From Pseudomonadota bacterium (GTDB taxonomy: Bacteria > Desulfobacterota > Desulfobacteria > Desulfobacterales > JBDRRP01): a stretch of 64,000 bases of DNA. The notes beneath the pieces are model-generated. The model had not been told where the DNA came from. It saw only the letters and a program-made list of their open reading frames with translations, and ran no database searches. Position 1 is the stretch's first letter. The number at the start of each line of letters is the position of its first letter. Of the stretch, positions 13,420 to 53,574 are shown one piece after another. The DNA is taken from positions 1 through 64,000 of the forward strand of contig JBDRRP010000025.1 in NCBI GenBank assembly GCA_043825735.1. The letters run 5' to 3'. The translations under genes and the position numbers were made by a program.

Positions 13420-13520
13420 CATTGAAAAATCTTATGGTTGCATCGCAGTCTGGACAAATTTGATACCGATTGCGGCAACAGATCCCGGCAAAAACTCCCA
13501 GCGTCGACGAAAAGCCACTT

Positions 13521-14630
13521 ATGACGTCCTCTCCCTTGGTTGTCACGTCCACCGGCATCACCGATGTCGGTCAGAAGCGAGACCACAACGAGGATTCCTT
13601 TTTCTCCAACGACACACTGCACCTTTACGTGGTTTCCGACGGCATGGGAGGGCACAAGGCCGGTGAAGTGGCCAGTCGTATCGTGGTGGAAACCATTCAG
13701 GACCGCATGCAGCAGTCGTCCGATACCGTGGAGGGAGCCCATCTGATTGAAACGGAAAAACCCCTCTCTGCTGAGACCACCCGACTGCTGGCCGCCATTC
13801 ATCTGGCCAACCAGGCCGTGTATCATATCGGCAGCAGCAAAGAGGATTACAAAGGCATGGGTGCCACGGTTTCCGCGGTGCTTCTGGCCGATACCCGCAT
13901 TATTGTCGCCAACGTTGGAGACAGCCCCGTTTACCTCATCCGCAACGCCGACATCGAACTGCTATCGGAACTGCACACATACATGGCCGAACATGCAGCG
14001 CTGGCACCCCCAGGGGCTAAACCGCTCAGCGAAAAATACCGCCACATGATCACCCGGGCCATGGGTGTCAAGCCGTCAGTCGTCCCATCATTTTGTGAAA
14101 TCCAGGGACTCCAGGACGATATCATCATCCTCTGCTCTGACGGACTGAGCGACAAACTCAGTCCTAAGGAGATCCTGGCCGTAGTGAATAAATACGGGGT
14201 AGACAAGGCGTGCAAGGCGCTGGTCATGATTGCCAATAAGCGCGGCGGCGATGACAACATCACGGTCATTGTTTTGCACATCACACAGCACCCCAATTCT
14301 ATCCCGGAGCGTTCATCGGCCGCTTCCGGTGCCCCACCGACCGGTGCGCCTTCGGCAGAACCATCTGAGGGCGGCGGAATCCCGGTGGATATAGACACCG
14401 ATGACGCCTCCCGCAGCGCCACACTGTTCTCACTGAGCAGTGACGGCGGGTTTATCCCCACCACGGAGGCCTATTCCGTCGGAGAAGCAATAACAATCAC
14501 GTTTACCGACAGCGCTGCCGATACCCTGATCATCGATGCCACAGTTACCGACCGGGATCCGAAGGGCATCCGTGTGCGCTTCTTGGACATCCCGGCCGAT
14601 CGTTTGCAGCGCCTGAAGGCGCTCATGTGA
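13521..14630 (+). CDS. PP2C-family Ser/Thr phosphatase with C-terminal PilZ-like domain
   Basis: RDHNED, VSDGMGG, ANVGDS, ILCSDGL, GGDDNIT; C-terminal beta-rich region with PilZ-like pattern (SLSSDGGFI...VGEAITITF...GIRVRF). Confidence 0.88.
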   Translation: MTSSPLVVTSTGITDVGQKRDHNEDSFFSNDTLHLYVVSDGMGGHKAGEVASRIVVETIQDRMQQSSDTVEGAHLIETEKPLSAETTRLLAAIHLANQAVYHIGSSKEDYKGMGATVSAVLLADTRIIVANVGDSPVYLIRNADIELLSELHTYMAEHAALAPPGAKPLSEKYRHMITRAMGVKPSVVPSFCEIQGLQDDIIILCSDGLSDKLSPKEILAVVNKYGVDKACKALVMIANKRGGDDNITVIVLHITQHPNSIPERSSAASGAPPTGAPSAEPSEGGGIPVDIDTDDASRSATLFSLSSDGGFIPTTEAYSVGEAITITFTDSAADTLIIDATVTDRDPKGIRVRFLDIPADRLQRLKALM

Positions 14631-17811: not shown

Positions 17812-18501
17812 ATGGACCGAACCATCACATTTATCTCCCAGGACCGCAAGCTGGCAGGCACACTCCATCTGCCCGCCGGCAGGCGTCCGCCCGTGGTCAT
17901 TGGCTCACACGGACTTCTGGGCACCCGGGCATCCGCCAAACAGGTGGCTCTGGCCGAGGCCTGCAGCGCTGCCGGGATGGCCTTTTTACGCTTCGACCAC
18001 CGCGGGTGCGGAGAAAGCGATCCCGCCGGCACGGACAGCGATCTTCTGGCCGGTCGGGTAACGGATCTTCTGGCCGCCGTATCCTGGGTCACCCAGCAAC
18101 CCGACCTGGGTGAGCGGATCGGTCTTTTCGGCAGCAGCCTGGGCGGCGCCGTCTGCCTGGCGGCTTTCCCGGCCTGCCGACCTGCGGCCCTGGTCACCTG
18201 GGCCGCTCCGGTAGCCAGCAGCGGTGTCAACCTCAATCGTCCGGAAGCCTCGCTGCCGCCGGGCCTGCACTATCGCAGCTTCAATCTCAGCGGGCAGTTG
18301 TCTGCCATCAGTCACATCTGTGTCTGCCACGGGGACCGGGATCAAGTCGTTCCGGTCGAAAATGCCCATGTCATCGCCGCGGGAGTCGGCGCCCCCCGAA
18401 ACTTGATAATTTTCCGAGGCGCTGGCCACCGGATGTCAGCGCCGGCACATCACCAACGATTTGTCGCTGAAGCCGTCCGGTGGTTTTCCCGGTATCTGTA
18501 A
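17812..18501 (+). CDS. Alpha/beta hydrolase
   Basis: HG oxyanion motif, FDHRGCGES, GSSLG nucleophile elbow, HGDRD, GAGH. Confidence 0.9.
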   Translation: MDRTITFISQDRKLAGTLHLPAGRRPPVVIGSHGLLGTRASAKQVALAEACSAAGMAFLRFDHRGCGESDPAGTDSDLLAGRVTDLLAAVSWVTQQPDLGERIGLFGSSLGGAVCLAAFPACRPAALVTWAAPVASSGVNLNRPEASLPPGLHYRSFNLSGQLSAISHICVCHGDRDQVVPVENAHVIAAGVGAPRNLIIFRGAGHRMSAPAHHQRFVAEAVRWFSRYL

Positions 18502-18666: not shown

Positions 18667-18812
18667 TGAACGCGGATATCGATATTGCGAAAGCCTGCAA
18701 TGTTCAACCGGCCAGCCTGATCGAGAGATTCCGGTTTCCGATTTCACTTGAGCACCCGACACCGCACACCCCCGGATGCGGGTGTCATGACCGCCATTAA
18801 AAAGGAGAGTTC

Positions 18813-19754
18813 ATGGCTGACAAACCGACCGCGCCATTGCTTCGCAGAGCCTTTGTGAAAACGGTTCTGCGGCGAACCTTCGCCTTCGTCACCCTGATCG
18901 GCTTGGTCTATGGTGTTATTGCCGGGGTGTACGCGACAAAAACGATCTTCAAAGTGAAAAAAAACTACGCCGTGGTGCTCGAGAAATTCGGCGGCAAGCG
19001 TGAAGCCGTCACCCGCGTGGGATGGCATGCACGGCTTCCCTACTTCACCAAGATCGAGCAGGAAGTCACCCTCATGAACCAACTGATGCTTCTGGGCGGC
19101 CAGCAGGAACCCATGCGCATCATTTCAAAGGAAAATGTGGCTCTGTGGACATCGGCCGCCATGACCTACCGTATCGACAACCTCGACGTGTGGGCCATCG
19201 AAAACAAAGACCCCATGGAACTTTTACAGGGTGACTTTGACGGCATCGTCAAGGACAACCTCCAGGCCCAGCCGGTCAATGAACTCATCAGTGATCGGGA
19301 AATGATCAAGGAAGACATCTTCAAGGCGCTCAAGGCGCGGCCCATCAATGAGGGCGGCCCCACTCTTGAAAAAAAATACGGCATTGAGGTGGTCAGTTTC
19401 GTATTGAAGGAGACGCGCTTTGGCGACAAGCTCGTGGAAGCCACTGAAGAAAAAAAGCGCCGGGAACTGATCGCAGAGGCCGAAAACTACGCCGCCGATC
19501 AGGAGGCAAGCCGCATCCGTAAACTCTACGCCGCCTATATGGAAAGCATCCAGGATCTGCAAAAACGCATCGGCCGGCCGGACGGCAGCACCGACACGGC
19601 CCTGCTCCAGTTCCTGACCCAGCAGAAATGGGCCTCCGCTTATGAAAAGAACCAGTCCGGCCAGAACACGGTGATCATCCAGGGCGGCGGTGACCCCCCG
19701 GCCTTGACCCTGCCGGCCCCTACCGGCGGAAAGGCCGCTTCAGGAGGCAACTGA
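18813..19754 (+). CDS. SPFH (band 7) domain membrane protein
   Basis: One N-terminal TM segment, VVLEKFG...GWHARLPY, ISKENV...YRI, YGIEVVSF, Ala/Glu-rich coiled coil; AAGGAG RBS. Confidence 0.88.
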   Translation: MADKPTAPLLRRAFVKTVLRRTFAFVTLIGLVYGVIAGVYATKTIFKVKKNYAVVLEKFGGKREAVTRVGWHARLPYFTKIEQEVTLMNQLMLLGGQQEPMRIISKENVALWTSAAMTYRIDNLDVWAIENKDPMELLQGDFDGIVKDNLQAQPVNELISDREMIKEDIFKALKARPINEGGPTLEKKYGIEVVSFVLKETRFGDKLVEATEEKKRRELIAEAENYAADQEASRIRKLYAAYMESIQDLQKRIGRPDGSTDTALLQFLTQQKWASAYEKNQSGQNTVIIQGGGDPPALTLPAPTGGKAASGGN

Positions 19755-22700
19755 TGCCGCGACGAACTACCCGGGAAATTCAGTATGTCCGGCTGCCGGA
19801 AAACCGGATTCGTGAAATCGAGGAACTGGTATCCTCCTGGCCCTATGAGACAAAATCCTTCATGCGGGCCCGGCTCAACCAGTACCGACCCAAGTCTGAC
19901 AAAATCAACATGGTCCTGGAGACCCTCCTTTCCCTCTTCATGGCATCTCCTGAAAAGCGCTTCGACACGCTGAAGGACCCTGACATCCTCACTGACTGGC
20001 AGCGGCGGTTTGAAATCTCCGGACAGACCAATCCCCAGGACGCCTGGAATAAAATTCTGGAAAAAGAGCTCTCGGGCCGGGACTACATTTATCTCTTATC
20101 TCTGCTTAACAAAGATCTCTCAGACATCCATGTGCCGGTGGAAATCCATGAGCTCTTCGACAAAATCTACCGAGCCCACATCCGAAAGGAGTACATCAGC
20201 GACCCGGAGGTACCCAAGGCGCCCCTGCTTCTGGTGACCGGTCCCAGCGGCAGCGGCAAGACCGCCACCACCACCGAAGCCGTTGAAAAGGTGATCTTCG
20301 ACAACGACGTTCTGCCGGAGATCGATCTCATCCAGAAAAAAGAGGCCCTGATGGCCGGGGAACCCTTCTGGAAGACCCTGGAAGAGGTCGCCCCGGATCT
20401 GGCCATGGAGATCGAGCGGCGCAAGCGGCTGAAGTTTTATAAGCAGCTGTCTCGGATTCCCCTGATCAAGTCGATCTTCAAGAAGGCCATCGGCCACAAC
20501 CTCTCCTTTCTGGAAGAACAGGGGCTATCGGTAGATTACGCCATGGTAACCCCCAACGACTATCAGACGGCCCTGGCCGGTGAGCCAGGAAACTATTTCA
20601 AAAAAGCCCTGGGGGACCCCCGGAAAACGAGTATCCGCCACATCGAAGAGGCCCACAGCGCCTTCGGCAGGGCTTCGGGCACCCAGTCCGGCGTGGAGCG
20701 CCAGCAGCGGACTCTCATCGATACGTCCAACATCATCATCGATGAGATCACCAGCGGTCGCCGTGACTGCCTGCTCATCGCCACGACCGATCAGCCCGAG
20801 CGCTTCGACGCCACCATTTACCGCCGGTTCGTGGAAAAGGGCAAGATCATCGATATCAGCGAGTACTGGCGAAATCCCGCCAACCTGCGGGAAGTGGTGC
20901 GCCTTGAGCTCATGCGAAGCGACATCCGCATGGCATCGGAGGCCTCCACGGTCTGCCACGGTACGGTCCGGTGCATCGATGACCATGCCATCAACGACTC
21001 GGTCCAGAAACTCTTTACCATTTTTGACGAGCGCAGCCTGAAACTGATTCCCTCCTATGTCAGAAAACTGATCCACTCCATCATCCAGATCCAGGGCGAT
21101 TACAGACCAGAGTACCTCGACGACGCCCTGTTGGTGCGCAACGCCTTCGAACTGGTGGCCAAGAACTCCTACGGCGATCTCTTCAAGAAAGTGGTCAACC
21201 GAATGGACCGTCATGTGCGCTGGGAGGAGTATGTCGGACAGATCAAGGACATGTTCTCGGAGATGGCCAACAACTGTCTATACTACGGCGTCAGTGAAGA
21301 AAAAGGCGTGGTCCTCAACGGACCTCCCGGCGGGGGAAAGACTTTTCTGGTGCGCTCCTGGCTCAGTGAAAACAGCGATATCCACGATATCTCCACCAGT
21401 CCCAGCGCGCTTCAGGACCCGGTCAACCCCATTGAGGGCGCCGTGGAAAACCTGGAAAAAGTCTACGACATCGCCAAAATGATCGCGCCCACAGTGGTTT
21501 TCTTCGATGAAGGCGACAGCCTGGCGCCGCGCCGGAGCCAAAGCGGCGGCAGCCCGTCCGATAAGCTCACCAACAAGTTTCTTAACCTGATCGACGGTGA
21601 AATCCCGCTGAACCGTGTGTTCACGGTCCTGACCACCAACCGGCTCGATATCCTCGACCCGGCGCTGATCCGCTCCAAGCGCCTCAAGGTCATGGAGATC
21701 TCGGGTCATATGGGCCGCGGCGATATTATAACGATCGTGAAAAATGCCCTGACAGACGTTCCCTTGGCCAAGGGCCTCGACGAGCCCAGCATCGTAGAGA
21801 CAGCCAAGGCGCTTTGCAATACACCGGCTGACTACGCCGCCTTCGTGGAAAAGGCGCGCGGTCTGCGCAGCACGGAGTTCGAAGTGTTGACCCGGTTTCG
21901 AACCCTGTCAGAAGGATCTGCGGACATCCAGGAGAAATTCATCAAGTTCAACTTCAAAACCCTGATGGGCATTCTCGACGCGCTCGACGCCCCCCAGGCC
22001 CTGCGGGCCGATGTCAAGTCGGCGCCCATTAGCCTGCTCACACGCCGGGAGGAGGTTTTGGCGCTGCTGACCCACATCAGGGAAATGGACGACTATCCGT
22101 TGCGCATGTCCCACCTGGAATCTGCTACTCAGGAAATTTCCGGCAGCCCGGTCAAAAAGGGCAAGGTGCAGCTCGATAAGTACCTGGAGGCCGAGCTCAG
22201 CCAGGAACCCCAGGTGGGATTTATCATCGGTGTCGGGGCCAACGACGTTTCCGGCGTGCTGCTGCCCATTGCCACCAGCCTCACCTACAGTCTTGGCACC
22301 GAAAAAGTGCTGGTCACCGGCGCGGTGTCTTCATCGGCGCCGGCGGCGGCGGAGCTGGAAATGGCCGTCAAGATGACCCAGCAGTCGGCTCAGGAAGCCT
22401 TCACCATGGTGAAGAACTACCTGCAGGAACTCTATCCCAAAGTCAGTATCCCAAAGCTTTTGGGCGAGTTTCTGAGCCAGTACACGATCCATCACCAACT
22501 GCTCTCCGCATCTTACAACGTGGGCGGTCCATCAGCCGGATACGCCCTGGCCATCAACACCCTGTCCGCCATGCTGCATCTGCCCGTCTACAACGATTTT
22601 GGCATTACCGGCGCCCCGTGGACCAAAGGCGTGAAAACCGGTGAAGTGGGCGGATCGGTGATCATCGGGGGTCATAAGAAAAAAACGGAAAAAGTCCTCA

Positions 22701-23173
22701 TGCACCTGCGCCGCATGTATATGCCGCTGCAGAACTATAAGGACCTTGAGATGGAATTTCTCGTGAATTACTGGGAGCAGGACAAAGATATCCTCGGGGT
22801 CACGCATTTCGGTGACCTGGTCCCCGAAGTTTACTGGCTGGGTGCCGCCGCCGATACCGATCTGCTGGACCTGATCCACATGCGCCTGGAATACAAGGTG
22901 AATAAATACCGCGGTCGTGCAGCGGATCCCAAGATCAAGGATGCCATTTTAGAAAAAAAGACCCGACTCAAGAGCCTTGCTGAAAAAGAAATCCGAAGTC
23001 GCCTGACCGACATCCATCTCTATCTGCGTAACCCGATCAGGGACCCGCACATTTCCCTCGAAGAGATTTTCAGAATGGGCGGGAAAAAACGCGCCCATAT
23101 CATTGTGCCCGTCATGAGCCGGATCAAAAACGGACTGCGCAGTCTGCGCCTGCCACGTCGCTCCGACGAATAA
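19754..23173 (+). CDS. Tandem AAA+ ATPase fused to a Lon-type (S16-like) protease domain
   Basis: GPSGSGKT (aa163), GPPGGGKT (aa523), FFDEGD (D585), TTNRLDILDPALIRSKR, GGPSAG (S927), GITG, IIGGHKKK (K977); TGATG overlap with the SPFH gene. Confidence 0.85.
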   Translation: MPRRTTREIQYVRLPENRIREIEELVSSWPYETKSFMRARLNQYRPKSDKINMVLETLLSLFMASPEKRFDTLKDPDILTDWQRRFEISGQTNPQDAWNKILEKELSGRDYIYLLSLLNKDLSDIHVPVEIHELFDKIYRAHIRKEYISDPEVPKAPLLLVTGPSGSGKTATTTEAVEKVIFDNDVLPEIDLIQKKEALMAGEPFWKTLEEVAPDLAMEIERRKRLKFYKQLSRIPLIKSIFKKAIGHNLSFLEEQGLSVDYAMVTPNDYQTALAGEPGNYFKKALGDPRKTSIRHIEEAHSAFGRASGTQSGVERQQRTLIDTSNIIIDEITSGRRDCLLIATTDQPERFDATIYRRFVEKGKIIDISEYWRNPANLREVVRLELMRSDIRMASEASTVCHGTVRCIDDHAINDSVQKLFTIFDERSLKLIPSYVRKLIHSIIQIQGDYRPEYLDDALLVRNAFELVAKNSYGDLFKKVVNRMDRHVRWEEYVGQIKDMFSEMANNCLYYGVSEEKGVVLNGPPGGGKTFLVRSWLSENSDIHDISTSPSALQDPVNPIEGAVENLEKVYDIAKMIAPTVVFFDEGDSLAPRRSQSGGSPSDKLTNKFLNLIDGEIPLNRVFTVLTTNRLDILDPALIRSKRLKVMEISGHMGRGDIITIVKNALTDVPLAKGLDEPSIVETAKALCNTPADYAAFVEKARGLRSTEFEVLTRFRTLSEGSADIQEKFIKFNFKTLMGILDALDAPQALRADVKSAPISLLTRREEVLALLTHIREMDDYPLRMSHLESATQEISGSPVKKGKVQLDKYLEAELSQEPQVGFIIGVGANDVSGVLLPIATSLTYSLGTEKVLVTGAVSSSAPAAAELEMAVKMTQQSAQEAFTMVKNYLQELYPKVSIPKLLGEFLSQYTIHHQLLSASYNVGGPSAGYALAINTLSAMLHLPVYNDFGITGAPWTKGVKTGEVGGSVIIGGHKKKTEKVLMHLRRMYMPLQNYKDLEMEFLVNYWEQDKDILGVTHFGDLVPEVYWLGAAADTDLLDLIHMRLEYKVNKYRGRAADPKIKDAILEKKTRLKSLAEKEIRSRLTDIHLYLRNPIRDPHISLEEIFRMGGKKRAHIIVPVMSRIKNGLRSLRLPRRSDE

Positions 23174-25506: not shown

Positions 25507-26736
25507 TCACAACACCCACCAAGGCACTGCAACCAGGTCTTTTGAAAGCTTCAAGGGTTTGTCCACCGCGCAGACAATCAAACCCGATCCGATTGTTTCC
25601 CCTGGAAAACATTCTCTAAAAGCACCGATCCCTCTGCCATCGTTTCGTGTTGGGTTGCTTTTTGCTTTGATTTCTACCGGATATAGGATGCCATCGCGCT
25701 CTAGTATCAGGTCGACTTCGGCCCCGCCGTAACTTCTGAAGTGATACACCGTGGGCGGTGTTGGCCAGGCCTGAATGCTTTTGATGATCTCCATTACAAC
25801 CCAGGTTTCAAACAAGGAACCAAGCAAAGGATGACTACCAATGGCTCCGGAGGAACTGATTTTTTGCAACTGACAGATAAAACCGGTATCCGCGAAATAC
25901 CCTTTGGCACGCCCGGCGATCCGTTTAACCGGGTTTCTTGTAAAAGCCGGCACAGAACACCAGAGGAAGGTCGACTGCACGGTTTCAAGCCAATACTGGG
26001 CTGTTTTTCGATCGACGCCGAGTTCGCGACCAAGGTGGGCGTGGTTGATTTCCTGTGCACTCAACGCAGCGAGTAGTCCAATAAACCGGCCAAAGGTCTG
26101 CAGTGAACCGATATTGGCGACGCTGCGAACATCTCTTTCTATATAGGTCTGGAGATAGCTCTGCCAAAAACCACTGATCAGATGTTCGGGGAGATCCATG
26201 GCGCCGGGGTAACCGCCGCGCCAGATCACTGGATAAAGCAACGCAGGGGTATCTTCTGCTGGGCTGTCAGCTACGGTTTCCCCGGCAATCCACTTCTCCA
26301 GAAAGTCTCCCGGCGCTTGGCAGGCCATCTCCCTGCGCGACATGGGTTGCAGTTGTAAAACAGCAACCCTGCCGGCCAGGGATTCGGCAATATCGCGCAT
26401 CACTGCCAGATGCTGAGAACCACTGAGGATGTAAAGTCCTTTTCGCTTTAACTGGTCCACGCGCCGCTTAATTGGTCCAAGAAGTTCCGGCGCGTATTGG
26501 ATCTCATCCAAGAAAACGGGTGGCGGGTGATTTTGCAGAAAAAACGTTGGATCCCGCCGCGCATTCTCGACATCCACCACTGGATCAAAAACAACGGTCT
26601 CTACCTTATGACCGAAAAGATTTTCGACCAGTGTGGATTTGCCTACCTGCCGTGCCCCGATAATCGCGACAACAGGGTAGTATTGAAACAGTTCTGTTAC
26701 CTTTTGTTCAATCAATCTTGGTCGATACGTGTTCAC
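25507..26736 (-). CDS. AAA_14-type ATPase with C-terminal DUF4143-like region
   Basis: GARQVGKST, FLDEIQ, LSGS, ESLAGR, RGGYP, YFADTG, EVDLIL...PVEIK; GTG start assumed. Confidence 0.88.
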   Translation of the reverse strand: MNTYRPRLIEQKVTELFQYYPVVAIIGARQVGKSTLVENLFGHKVETVVFDPVVDVENARRDPTFFLQNHPPPVFLDEIQYAPELLGPIKRRVDQLKRKGLYILSGSQHLAVMRDIAESLAGRVAVLQLQPMSRREMACQAPGDFLEKWIAGETVADSPAEDTPALLYPVIWRGGYPGAMDLPEHLISGFWQSYLQTYIERDVRSVANIGSLQTFGRFIGLLAALSAQEINHAHLGRELGVDRKTAQYWLETVQSTFLWCSVPAFTRNPVKRIAGRAKGYFADTGFICQLQKISSSGAIGSHPLLGSLFETWVVMEIIKSIQAWPTPPTVYHFRSYGGAEVDLILERDGILYPVEIKAKSNPTRNDGRGIGAFRECFPGETIGSGLIVCAVDKPLKLSKDLVAVPWWVL

Positions 26737-26776
26737 ATCTAAGTAGCCTCGTGCTGGCAATCGTATTCCTCACATA

Positions 26777-52818: not shown

Positions 52819-53574
52819 CTATTTATCCTTTTTTCCGGCCATTTCCAAAAAGGGTCTGAACAGATCCATTGGGAACGGGAAAATCGTGGTCGTGTTCTGC
52901 TCGGCTGCCATCTCCCGCATGGTCTGAAGGTATCTCAGTTGCAGGGCCATGGGATGATCCTGGATGATTGCGGAAGCCTCCGCCAATTTGGCGGCCGCCT
53001 GGAACTCGCCGTCGGCATTGATGATCTTGGCCCGTCGTTCGCGCTCGGCTTCGGCCTGCTTGGCCATGGACCGCTGCATTTCCTGCGGCAGATCGATATG
53101 CTTGAGCTCAACGGTGGCCACTTTGATGCCCCAGGGATCGGTGTGCGTATCGAGGATTTCCTGCAACTGCGAATTGATCTTTTCCCGGGCAGACAGCAGC
53201 TCATCCAGATCCGCCTGCCCGCAGACGCTCCGAAGCGTGGTCTGGGCCAGTTGGCTCATGGCATACTGGTAGTTCTCCACCTCGACAATGGCCTTGATAG
53301 GGTCGATGACGCGGAAATAAATAACCGCATTGACCTTGACCGACACGTTGTCACGGGTGATCACGTCCTGGGGGTCCACATCTGTGGCCACCAGCCGCAG
53401 GCTCACGGGCACCATCTTATCGATGACGGGGATGAGGATGATGAGTCCCGGCCCCTTGGCCTTGATCACCCGTCCCAATCGGAAAATCACGCCGCGCTCG
53501 TACTCGTTGAGAACTCTGATCGCGGCAAACAAAAACATGACCGTCAATACGATGATGACTATGGCAGCATACAT
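52819..53574 (-). CDS. Slipin / stomatin-like SPFH protein
   Basis: [47 protein letters not shown]. Confidence 0.95.

Follow-up and report, generated by a model that had tools for sequence, protein, structure and literature searches.

In a 64,000-nucleotide stretch of DNA (the window: positions 1 to 64,000, forward strand, of contig JBDRRP010000025.1, assembly GCA_043825735.1) from a bacterium of the Desulfobacterales, we analyzed two adjacent genes on the plus strand. The first (18813..19754) encodes an SPFH/Band_7 membrane protein of 313 amino acids (aa), here called P0001, and the second (19754..23173) encodes an AAA-AAA-Lon protease of 1139 aa, here called P0002. P0002 is a soluble single-polypeptide chimera in which a Cdc48/p97/VAT-like tandem classical-AAA unfoldase (modules D1 and D2) is joined to a LonB-like Ser-Lys peptidase, and it is obligatorily co-inherited with a dedicated SPFH protein that has a single transmembrane (TM) segment. 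The operon product is most likely a membrane-associated, ATP-dependent protease system, as predicted from the sequences and models described below, and the SPFH-coupled AAA-AAA-Lon protein is apparently an undescribed kind of ATP-driven protease.

Architecture and catalytic residues of P0002

Pfam matched AAA in two stretches of P0002 (E 2.7e-27) and Lon_C at residues 808-999 (E 3.2e-7; 30.6 bits vs a cut-off of 21.1). A full-length AlphaFold2 (AF2) model was built on an alignment of 31 family sequences sharing 33-100% identity, and reached a mean predicted local distance difference test (pLDDT) score of 82.5 and a predicted template modeling (pTM) score of 0.62. In this model, the chain begins with an N-terminal domain (residues 1-145; 19754..20188), which consists of a beta-hairpin followed by helices, is mostly helical and matches no known family. 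The two AAA modules follow, D1 at residues ~150-480 (20201..21193; delimited by model, alignment and Foldseek) and D2 at residues ~497-720 (21242..21913). A helical linker (residues 723-814; 21920..22195) connects D2 to the Lon (S16) peptidase domain at residues ~815-1030 (22196..22843), and a family-specific extension (residues 1031-1139; 22844..23170) ends the protein, with three long helices predicted across residues 1031-1131. The closest solved structures by sequence were VAT, Cdc48 and p97 (E ~3e-40 to 1e-37), and in a Foldseek search against the PDB, the tandem modules D1-D2 of Cdc48/p97 aligned with P0002 over 720-770 columns (E 2e-20).

Separate Pfam searches of the N-domain, the D1 insertion described below, the linker and the C-terminal helices returned 0 families at E<=10, and a CDC48_N-type domain was likewise not found in residues 1-150 at that threshold. 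In an Atlas feature search, the highest score reached by the N-domain was 0.85, which is below the usable range. Residues 9-43 (19778-19882) have a strand-helix-helix order in the model that recalls a ribbon-helix-helix unit; Pfam RHH_1 matched 4 other places in the genome and none at the P0002 N-terminus. P0002 has neither a TM segment nor a signal sequence by sequence and hydropathy analysis, the hydropathy maximum being 1.66 at residue 821, within the strands of the Lon domain.

D2 is a canonical classical AAA module by Pfam, NCBIfam, PDB and VIA-align comparisons. It carries a Walker A motif (GPPGGGKT, residues 523-530), a Walker B motif (FFDE, residues 583-586), the sensor-1 Asn (N629) and a second region of homology (SRH; TTNRLDILDPALIRSKRL, residues 627-644) with two Arg fingers, R640 and R643. 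The classical-clade PAD motif, at residues 691-693, replaces the sensor-2 arginine. We counted invariance over the 31 aligned sequences. K529, E586, N629, R640 and R643 of D2 were identical in 31/31, as were K169 and E299 of D1 and S927 and K977 of the peptidase domain, while 4 distant sequences, most of them archaeal, had N or Q in place of D585 in the D2 Walker B. The NCBIfam models nearest D2 were CDC48, PAN and FtsH, with Lon not among the nearest. By VIA-align, D2 matched proteasomal Rpt subunits (Z ~22) and Msp1 (Z ~20).

D1 is more divergent, with 0 phmmer matches in the PDB at E<=0.01 when it was searched alone (residues 140-480). It has a Walker A motif (GPSGSGKT, residues 163-170, with K169), a Walker B motif (IRHIEE, residues 294-299, with E299) and an SRH (ATTDQPERFDATIYRRF, residues 343-359) in which R358 is nearly invariant. 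A second candidate for the D1 Walker B, IIIDE at residues 327-331, was rejected; it lines up with the segment that reads "MDG" in canonical AAA proteins. G335, in this "MDG"-equivalent region, is invariant. A family-specific insertion of ~75 residues lies between helix alpha1, which follows Walker A, and strand beta2 (residues ~183-258; 20300..20527), and the model and alignment place one strand and five helices in it.

Pore-loop positions were assigned by alignment to the canonical motif. The D1 pore-loop-1 equivalent is TALAGE (residues 272-277) in P0002 and most bacterial homologues, and TAWAGE in four loci of ~52% identity (L055 and L091-L093); of 8 distant relatives, 6 have W-Y-G-E or Y-Y-G-E there. 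We take the L-A-G-E loop of D1 to resemble the D1 loop of p97, and the W-Y-G-E of the distant members presumably resembles archaeal VAT-type loops. The D2 equivalent, NPIEG (residues 558-562), is NP[IVL][ED]G-like and non-aromatic in 31/31 sequences.

The peptidase domain was compared with solved Lon structures. In VIA-align, model residues 814..1085 superposed on the Lon proteolytic domain 6x27_C with Z 19.3 and a root-mean-square deviation of 2.6 Å (193/194 residues aligned). When D2 and the peptidase were treated as one unit, VIA-align matched them to Yersinia LonA (6on2_D; Z 19.5, 402 residues) and also to yeast PIM1 and T. onnurineus LonB (Z 19.3). In phmmer alignments, GGPSAG of P0002 fell on the active-site GPSAG of solved Lon domains, and IGGHKKK fell on GGVTQK of the A. 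fulgidus LonB domain, with agreeing Lys spacing. The Ser-Lys dyad is Ser927 within GGPSAG and Lys977 within IGGxxxK. When residues 785-1139 were refolded as a fragment, with only bacterial sequences in the alignment, the model was of low confidence (pLDDT 65.3); its top 13 Foldseek rows were all Lon domains, at E >= 9.4e-3. Because this fragment model was poor and had no match at E <= 0.001, the conclusion rests on the full-length model, in which the Lon fold of the C-terminal peptidase was confirmed.

An earlier note on this DNA, made by a model from the letters alone, had read the second gene as a protein without a clear TM segment, carrying two AAA modules with SRH motifs and then a Lon-like protease domain with an S927/K977 dyad, and had named a C-terminal domain without the Lon/S16 fold as a result that would count against it. 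The anatomical points held and the adverse result did not arise: the two AAA stretches and Lon_C scored above cut-off, both SRH motifs were located, the dyad was invariant, and the C-terminal domain matched 6x27_C as given above.

Coupling of P0002 to a divergent SPFH protein

The stop codon of P0001 (TGA, 19752-19754) and the start codon of P0002 (ATG, 19754-19756) share one base, forming TGATG (19752-19756). An AGGAGG motif (19742-19747) lies 6 nt ahead of the P0002 ATG, so that ribosome-binding site and stop/start overlap together occupy 19742..19756 on the plus strand. A Shine-Dalgarno-like AAGGAGAG was also read upstream of the SPFH gene (18802..18809, plus strand). P0001 and P0002 are real genes, chance open reading frames (ORFs) being ruled out, and they form one translationally coupled operon. 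Across 62 loci that carry the pair, the distance from SPFH stop to AAA-Lon start ranged from -68 to +104 nt, and it fell within -29 to +24 nt in 57 of them. Scans for promoter-like sites (3 seen vs 2.2 expected) and terminator-like sites (7 seen vs 7.6 expected) were uninformative. A minus-strand ORF that overlaps the 3' end of the P0002 gene (22949..23464) was taken as spurious: Pfam returned nothing for it, and none of 51 related loci carries a homologue.

P0001 matched Pfam Band_7 (PF01145) at residues 47-232 (18951..19508, plus strand) with E 9.5e-17 and 62 bits vs a cut-off of 23.6, and the same identity was recovered by a whole-genome family search. One hydrophobic segment, the predicted TM, was found at residues ~22-41 (18876..18935, plus strand; Kyte-Doolittle 19-residue maximum 2.1). 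Hydropathy and alignment together give the usual SPFH layout, with an N-terminal anchor, the SPFH domain and then a conserved helical EEKKRRELIAEAENYAADQEASRIRKLYAAY block, taken as the coiled-coil region. In a 26-sequence alignment, P0001 was conserved throughout, from a basic N-tail (LxRAFVKTxLRR, with R12 invariant) through the TM, the SPFH domain and the short helical block to a C-terminal FLxQQKWAxAYEKNQ block. Its variable part was the Pro-rich C-terminal end.

No NCBIfam family matched P0001 at E<=1, the HflK/HflC models included, and the best PDB sequence match, stomatin, was not significant (E 0.93). P0001 is therefore assigned, by sequence, to a divergent SPFH subfamily. An Atlas feature search with P0001 returned SPFH clusters only.

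We then examined how consistently the two genes occur together, using loci of which no two were >=97% identical over 1.5 kb. An SPFH gene lay directly upstream of the AAA-Lon gene in 62/62 distinct loci with an intact 5' end, at 52-89% identity to the window for P0002 and 59-91% for P0001. In species-representative genomes, 51 loci with a P0002 homologue (59-89% identity) were found, with source labels of Desulfobacterales-, Desulfobulbales- or delta-proteobacterial-type metagenome-assembled genomes, and 50 had a P0001 homologue directly upstream. The sole unpaired locus (L011) begins inside the AAA-Lon gene, at residue 171. Among metagenome loci, the pair was present in L052, L053 and L055 (52-72% identity), L054 and L056 were internal fragments, and L057 encoded a different AAA protein. 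A phylum-wide genome search added 9 loci of 52-68% identity, all with the pair.

Co-occurrence was also assessed in a phylum sample of 401 genomes drawn evenly, with orthologues called at E <= 1e-80 for P0002 and E <= 1e-40 for P0001. Both genes were present in the same 10 genomes and neither was present in the other 391. P0002 orthologues occurred in 9 of the 340 high-quality genomes of this sample and in 10 of 41 closer relatives; the sampled genomes are kin, and these counts describe a pattern and not independent trials. Taken together, the carriers represent at least 14 coded GTDB families. Over 57 loci, the identities of P0001 and P0002 to the window pair co-varied (Pearson 0.84), a value that is descriptive only, as the loci are kin. 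From these observations, the P0001 subfamily occurs exclusively together with P0002. The earlier note had described a two-gene unit with a TGATG overlap and an AGGAGG ribosome-binding site, with a single-TM SPFH protein as its first product, had suggested a check for conserved SPFH adjacency, and had counted homologues unlinked to SPFH genes as evidence against its proposal; both ORFs lie exactly where it had placed them, and every intact locus was linked.

The family extends beyond these close orthologues. An exhaustive search of representative sequences found ~9 full-length 50%-identity clusters with the whole architecture, 7 of them at 32-40% identity to P0002. Several of the distant full-length relatives carry the source names Ca. 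Woesearchaeota and Nanoarchaeota (DPANN archaea). Among bacteria identified by name, the family occurs in Desulfosarcina ovata (71% identity), in Malonomonas rubra (52%), and in Geoalkalibacter sp., Desulfuromonadales and Deferrisomatales. A metagenome scan with the distant alignment, the output of which was swamped by the generic Walker A pattern, gave 5 family loci, all of bacterial type. Two scans of viral contigs gave no member of the AAA-AAA-Lon family.

Possible roles of the pair

We consider it somewhat more probable than the opposite that the pair acts as an SPFH-anchored or SPFH-gated AAA-AAA-Lon protease at the membrane. The earlier note had likewise proposed a Cdc48-like double ring kept at the membrane by an SPFH cage, which is a prediction here too. 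P0002 would form a hexamer, as both Cdc48 and Lon are hexameric, with stacked tiers of N/D1, D2 and peptidase. D2 would be the principal motor, since all its catalytic residues are canonical and invariant, and D1 would bind ATP and perhaps hydrolyze it. Unfolded substrate would pass from the N/D1 face through an axial channel into the Lon chamber, where Ser927 and Lys977 would cleave it. The SPFH oligomer may recruit, anchor or gate P0002 at the cytoplasmic membrane, contacting it either with an SPFH domain that faces the cytoplasm or with the conserved basic N-tail. The targets might be membrane or membrane-proximal proteins, and the pair might serve the same function as FtsH-HflK/C with different components. 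We infer the membrane tethering, the direct P0001-P0002 binding and the nature of the substrates.

Several observations weigh against this proposal, the weakest points of which are the physical contact with the SPFH protein, the topology of that protein, and threading without aromatic pore loops. P0002 is soluble and lacks a TM segment of its own. The TM of P0001 is flanked by 6 Lys and Arg in the 21 residues on either side, and because the count is the same on both sides, the positive-inside rule cannot orient the protein and its topology is ambiguous. The SPFH domain could be periplasmic as in HflK/C; in that case, just the ~21-residue cytoplasmic tail could reach the protease. The classical aromatic-hydrophobic-Gly pore loop 1 was found in neither ring of P0002, and because both lack the aromatic residue, processive threading is an assumption. 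The sensor-1 position of D1 is Asp in P0002 and variable across the family. The spread of the pair is patchy (10/401 and 10/41), so an accessory or transferable function fits as well as quality control does. Lastly, in 1 of the 62 loci (L092; 4787-5731, minus strand), an in-frame TAA removes the last ~21 SPFH codons. This stop in the L092 gene (genome G226) falls just before the conserved PxLTLP tail, with the frame continuing beyond it, and reflects either genuine shortening of the gene or an error in sequencing. A complex prediction with P0002 residues 1-480 and full-length P0001 scored 0.09 (mark 0.32), which is evidence neither way.

The strict one-to-one co-occurrence and translational coupling of this SPFH subfamily with the AAA-Lon gene would also fit a different relationship, in which the SPFH protein is a client. 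The AAA-Lon protein would then assemble, disassemble or turn over the SPFH oligomer, as a Cdc48-like segregase draws subunits out of a stable cage, and the coupling would be that of an enzyme with its dedicated substrate. The fold of D2 matches the membrane-protein extractase Msp1, as noted above, and SPFH cages, as seen in HflK/C and flotillin structures, are very stable oligomers. However, equimolar and translationally coupled production of a protease and its own substrate would be unusual. The SPFH protein is moreover the better conserved of the two, with a mean identity of 72.9% vs 67.3% for P0002 over 57 loci, which suits a structural partner, and no degron-like variable region was evident besides the Pro-rich C-tail. 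We therefore regard the client relationship as improbable.

In a slightly less probable arrangement, the two proteins act from different sides of the membrane, or form no stable complex. The SPFH domain would lie in the periplasm and organize a membrane microdomain, and the cytoplasmic AAA-Lon protein would degrade proteins that this domain releases or exposes, with just a shared pathway or regulon linking the two. The SPFH domains of HflK/C are in the periplasm, the charges around the TM of P0001 leave its topology undecided, and P0002 has no TM or signal sequence, all of which would be compatible with such an arrangement. On the other hand, perfect co-occurrence and overlapping frames down to 52% identity are more typical of physically interacting subunits, and a short cytoplasmic N-tail with a conserved basic motif and an invariant Arg could serve as a docking peptide.

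Returning to the membrane-linked protease that we favor, a broader proposal, which we hold to be evenly balanced, is that the family represents an undescribed class of energy-dependent protease. It would be a self-compartmentalizing hexamer in which two Cdc48-type rings feed a Lon chamber, dependent on a dedicated SPFH scaffold and common to Desulfobacterota and DPANN archaea.

Genomic context and comparison with known systems

The source genome (6.8 Mb, 100% complete) carries a single copy of the pair. It also encodes 3 LonA genes and 1 FtsH over curated cut-offs, as well as 10 Band_7 loci. The pair is an accessory, specialized addition to the standard protease set and not a replacement, since the genome also encodes FtsH and three LonA. 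The LonA paralogues are full-length (974-1000 bits) and lie on contigs C22, C108 and C61. Tandem Band_7 pairs on contigs C96 and C71 look HflK/HflC-like, and a second SPFH/Band_7 gene within the window (53005-53514, minus strand) is the genome's best Band_7 match, at 139.5 bits.

The neighbors of the pair are ordinary chromosomal genes. They encode a DnaJ-domain protein, a PP2C-PilZ fusion, a DUF3786 protein, a TrmA-like methyltransferase, alpha/beta hydrolases, an amidohydrolase, an AAA_14/DUF4143 ATPase, an inositol monophosphatase, CinA and a radical SAM protein. Conservation of the flanks was low even for the best-conserved neighbors: an upstream alpha/beta hydrolase was found in 14/51 related loci, the TrmA-like methyltransferase in 13/51, the downstream amidohydrolase in 15/51 and CinA in 14/51. 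The upstream alpha/beta-hydrolase gene (S33/S9-like; 17812-18501, plus strand) lies 311 nt from the SPFH gene on the same strand, and its homologues (42-62% identity) occupy the same position in those 14 loci. This gene may sometimes belong to the unit as its third member. The PP2C-PilZ fusion (13470-14630, plus strand; 386 aa) combines a PP2C-type phosphatase domain (E 3.8e-17) with a C-terminal PilZ domain (E 9.3e-7), which suggests a cyclic di-GMP-responsive protein phosphatase. The gene for the AAA_14 + DUF4143 ATPase (25507-26760, minus strand) had no homologue in any of the 51 loci and is possibly a recent insertion into partly syntenic flanks.

The earlier note had also raised a role in phage response, and an anti-phage or other conflict system, with the protease as effector or sensor restrained by the SPFH protein, might be considered from the patchy distribution within the phylum (10/401), from the presence of the family in both bacteria and DPANN archaea, and from weak D2 matches to PADLOC IetA (E 2.4e-10), to TRIP13 models and to NCBIfam IteA (30.8 bits vs 510). 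We judge a defense role unlikely, and indeed the least probable of the alternatives, and the evidence goes against this part of the note: the defense-model matches are limited to the generic AAA core and far under cut-offs, identity is ~70% across at least 14 coded GTDB families whereas defense genes evolve fast, the surrounding genes are partly syntenic and serve metabolism or housekeeping, neither an integrase nor a defense gene was seen nearby, GC content is flat across the locus (0.55-0.62), and the family-specific C-terminal 355 aa of P0002 matched none of 72,556 plasmid and 50,697 phage records.

To our knowledge, prokaryotic ATP-dependent proteases are few, namely Clp, HslUV, Lon, FtsH and the proteasome with PAN/Mpa/Cdc48. 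This set would gain a distinct architecture if a tandem classical-AAA motor with a Lon peptidase in cis were added to it, and P0002 would be a natural experiment on a Cdc48-type double ring that hands substrate to a protease. The dedicated pairing would be a second, independent case of SPFH and AAA-protease association, and a simpler one, since the protease is soluble and there is one SPFH gene. The role of SPFH cages in the work of proteases is a matter of debate for HflK/C-FtsH, and the pair could help to clarify it. If the broader proposal of an undescribed protease class is true, the coupling of SPFH proteins to AAA proteases arose independently of FtsH-HflK/C and prohibitin/m-AAA, and SPFH scaffolding would be a general solution to the control of membrane proteolysis. 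Orthologues in cultured species, including Desulfosarcina ovata and Malonomonas rubra, make the system testable.

We looked for prior descriptions of the architecture. No curated Pfam or NCBIfam model for SPFH-linked AAA-AAA-Lon proteins was found, and the public names of the P0002 family are "AAA family ATPase", "SpoVK/Ycf46/Vps4 family" and "transitional endoplasmic reticulum ATPase". Searches of open-access papers and bioRxiv preprints, including passages of PMC2636767, PMC11188069, PMC7159879 and PMC5070193, found no description of an AAA-AAA-Lon protein with an SPFH gene as its partner. To the extent of these sources, the view of the earlier note that the combination is not a described family stands.

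Like Cdc48, p97 and VAT, P0002 has two stacked classical AAA modules (type II), which align over ~720-770 columns. In contrast to them, its D1 has the ~75-residue insertion, its D2 pore loop is non-aromatic, and its peptidase is fused in cis, whereas theirs is the separate 20S particle (in archaea). Against the CDC48 model TIGR01243, P0002 scored 78.8 bits vs a cut-off of 802.65, with the D2 region alone matching.

With LonA, LonB and LonC, P0002 shares the S16 fold and the Ser-Lys dyad, and its D2 and peptidase superpose on LonA and LonB. Lon, however, has a single AAA+ module of another clade, whereas the peptidase of P0002 adjoins a classical AAA module that is preceded by a second one. P0002 also lacks the LonB-type TM insertion by hydropathy and the LonA N-domain by Pfam, and its scores were far from the Lon family cut-offs (TIGR00763, 43.4 vs 608.05; TIGR00764, 34.1 vs 516.6; TIGR02902, 38.5 vs 723.3). 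IetA/IteA differ as well: the IteA score is the low NCBIfam value given above, and the PADLOC IetA match covers residues 505-640, the AAA core alone.

Stomatin-NfeD/STOPP systems are two-gene operons that pair an SPFH protein with a serine protease partner. Unlike the AAA-Lon protein, NfeD and STOPP are ATP-independent membrane proteases of another fold with no AAA motor, and no NfeD-type match was found for P0001 or P0002 in the Pfam search.

FtsH with HflK/HflC shares with the pair a classical-clade AAA motor fused to its own peptidase and an SPFH membrane partner, and D2 matches FtsH models at E ~1e-13 to 1e-14. FtsH differs in that it has two TM helices, a single AAA module and a zinc peptidase of type M41, whereas P0002 lacks a TM, carries two AAA modules and has a Lon peptidase with a Ser-Lys dyad. 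The pair also has a single SPFH gene and no paralogous HflK/HflC-type couple, and the partner of that SPFH protein is not FtsH. By these membership tests, P0001 and P0002 fall outside FtsH, HflK/C, Cdc48, LonA, LonB and IetA/IteA.

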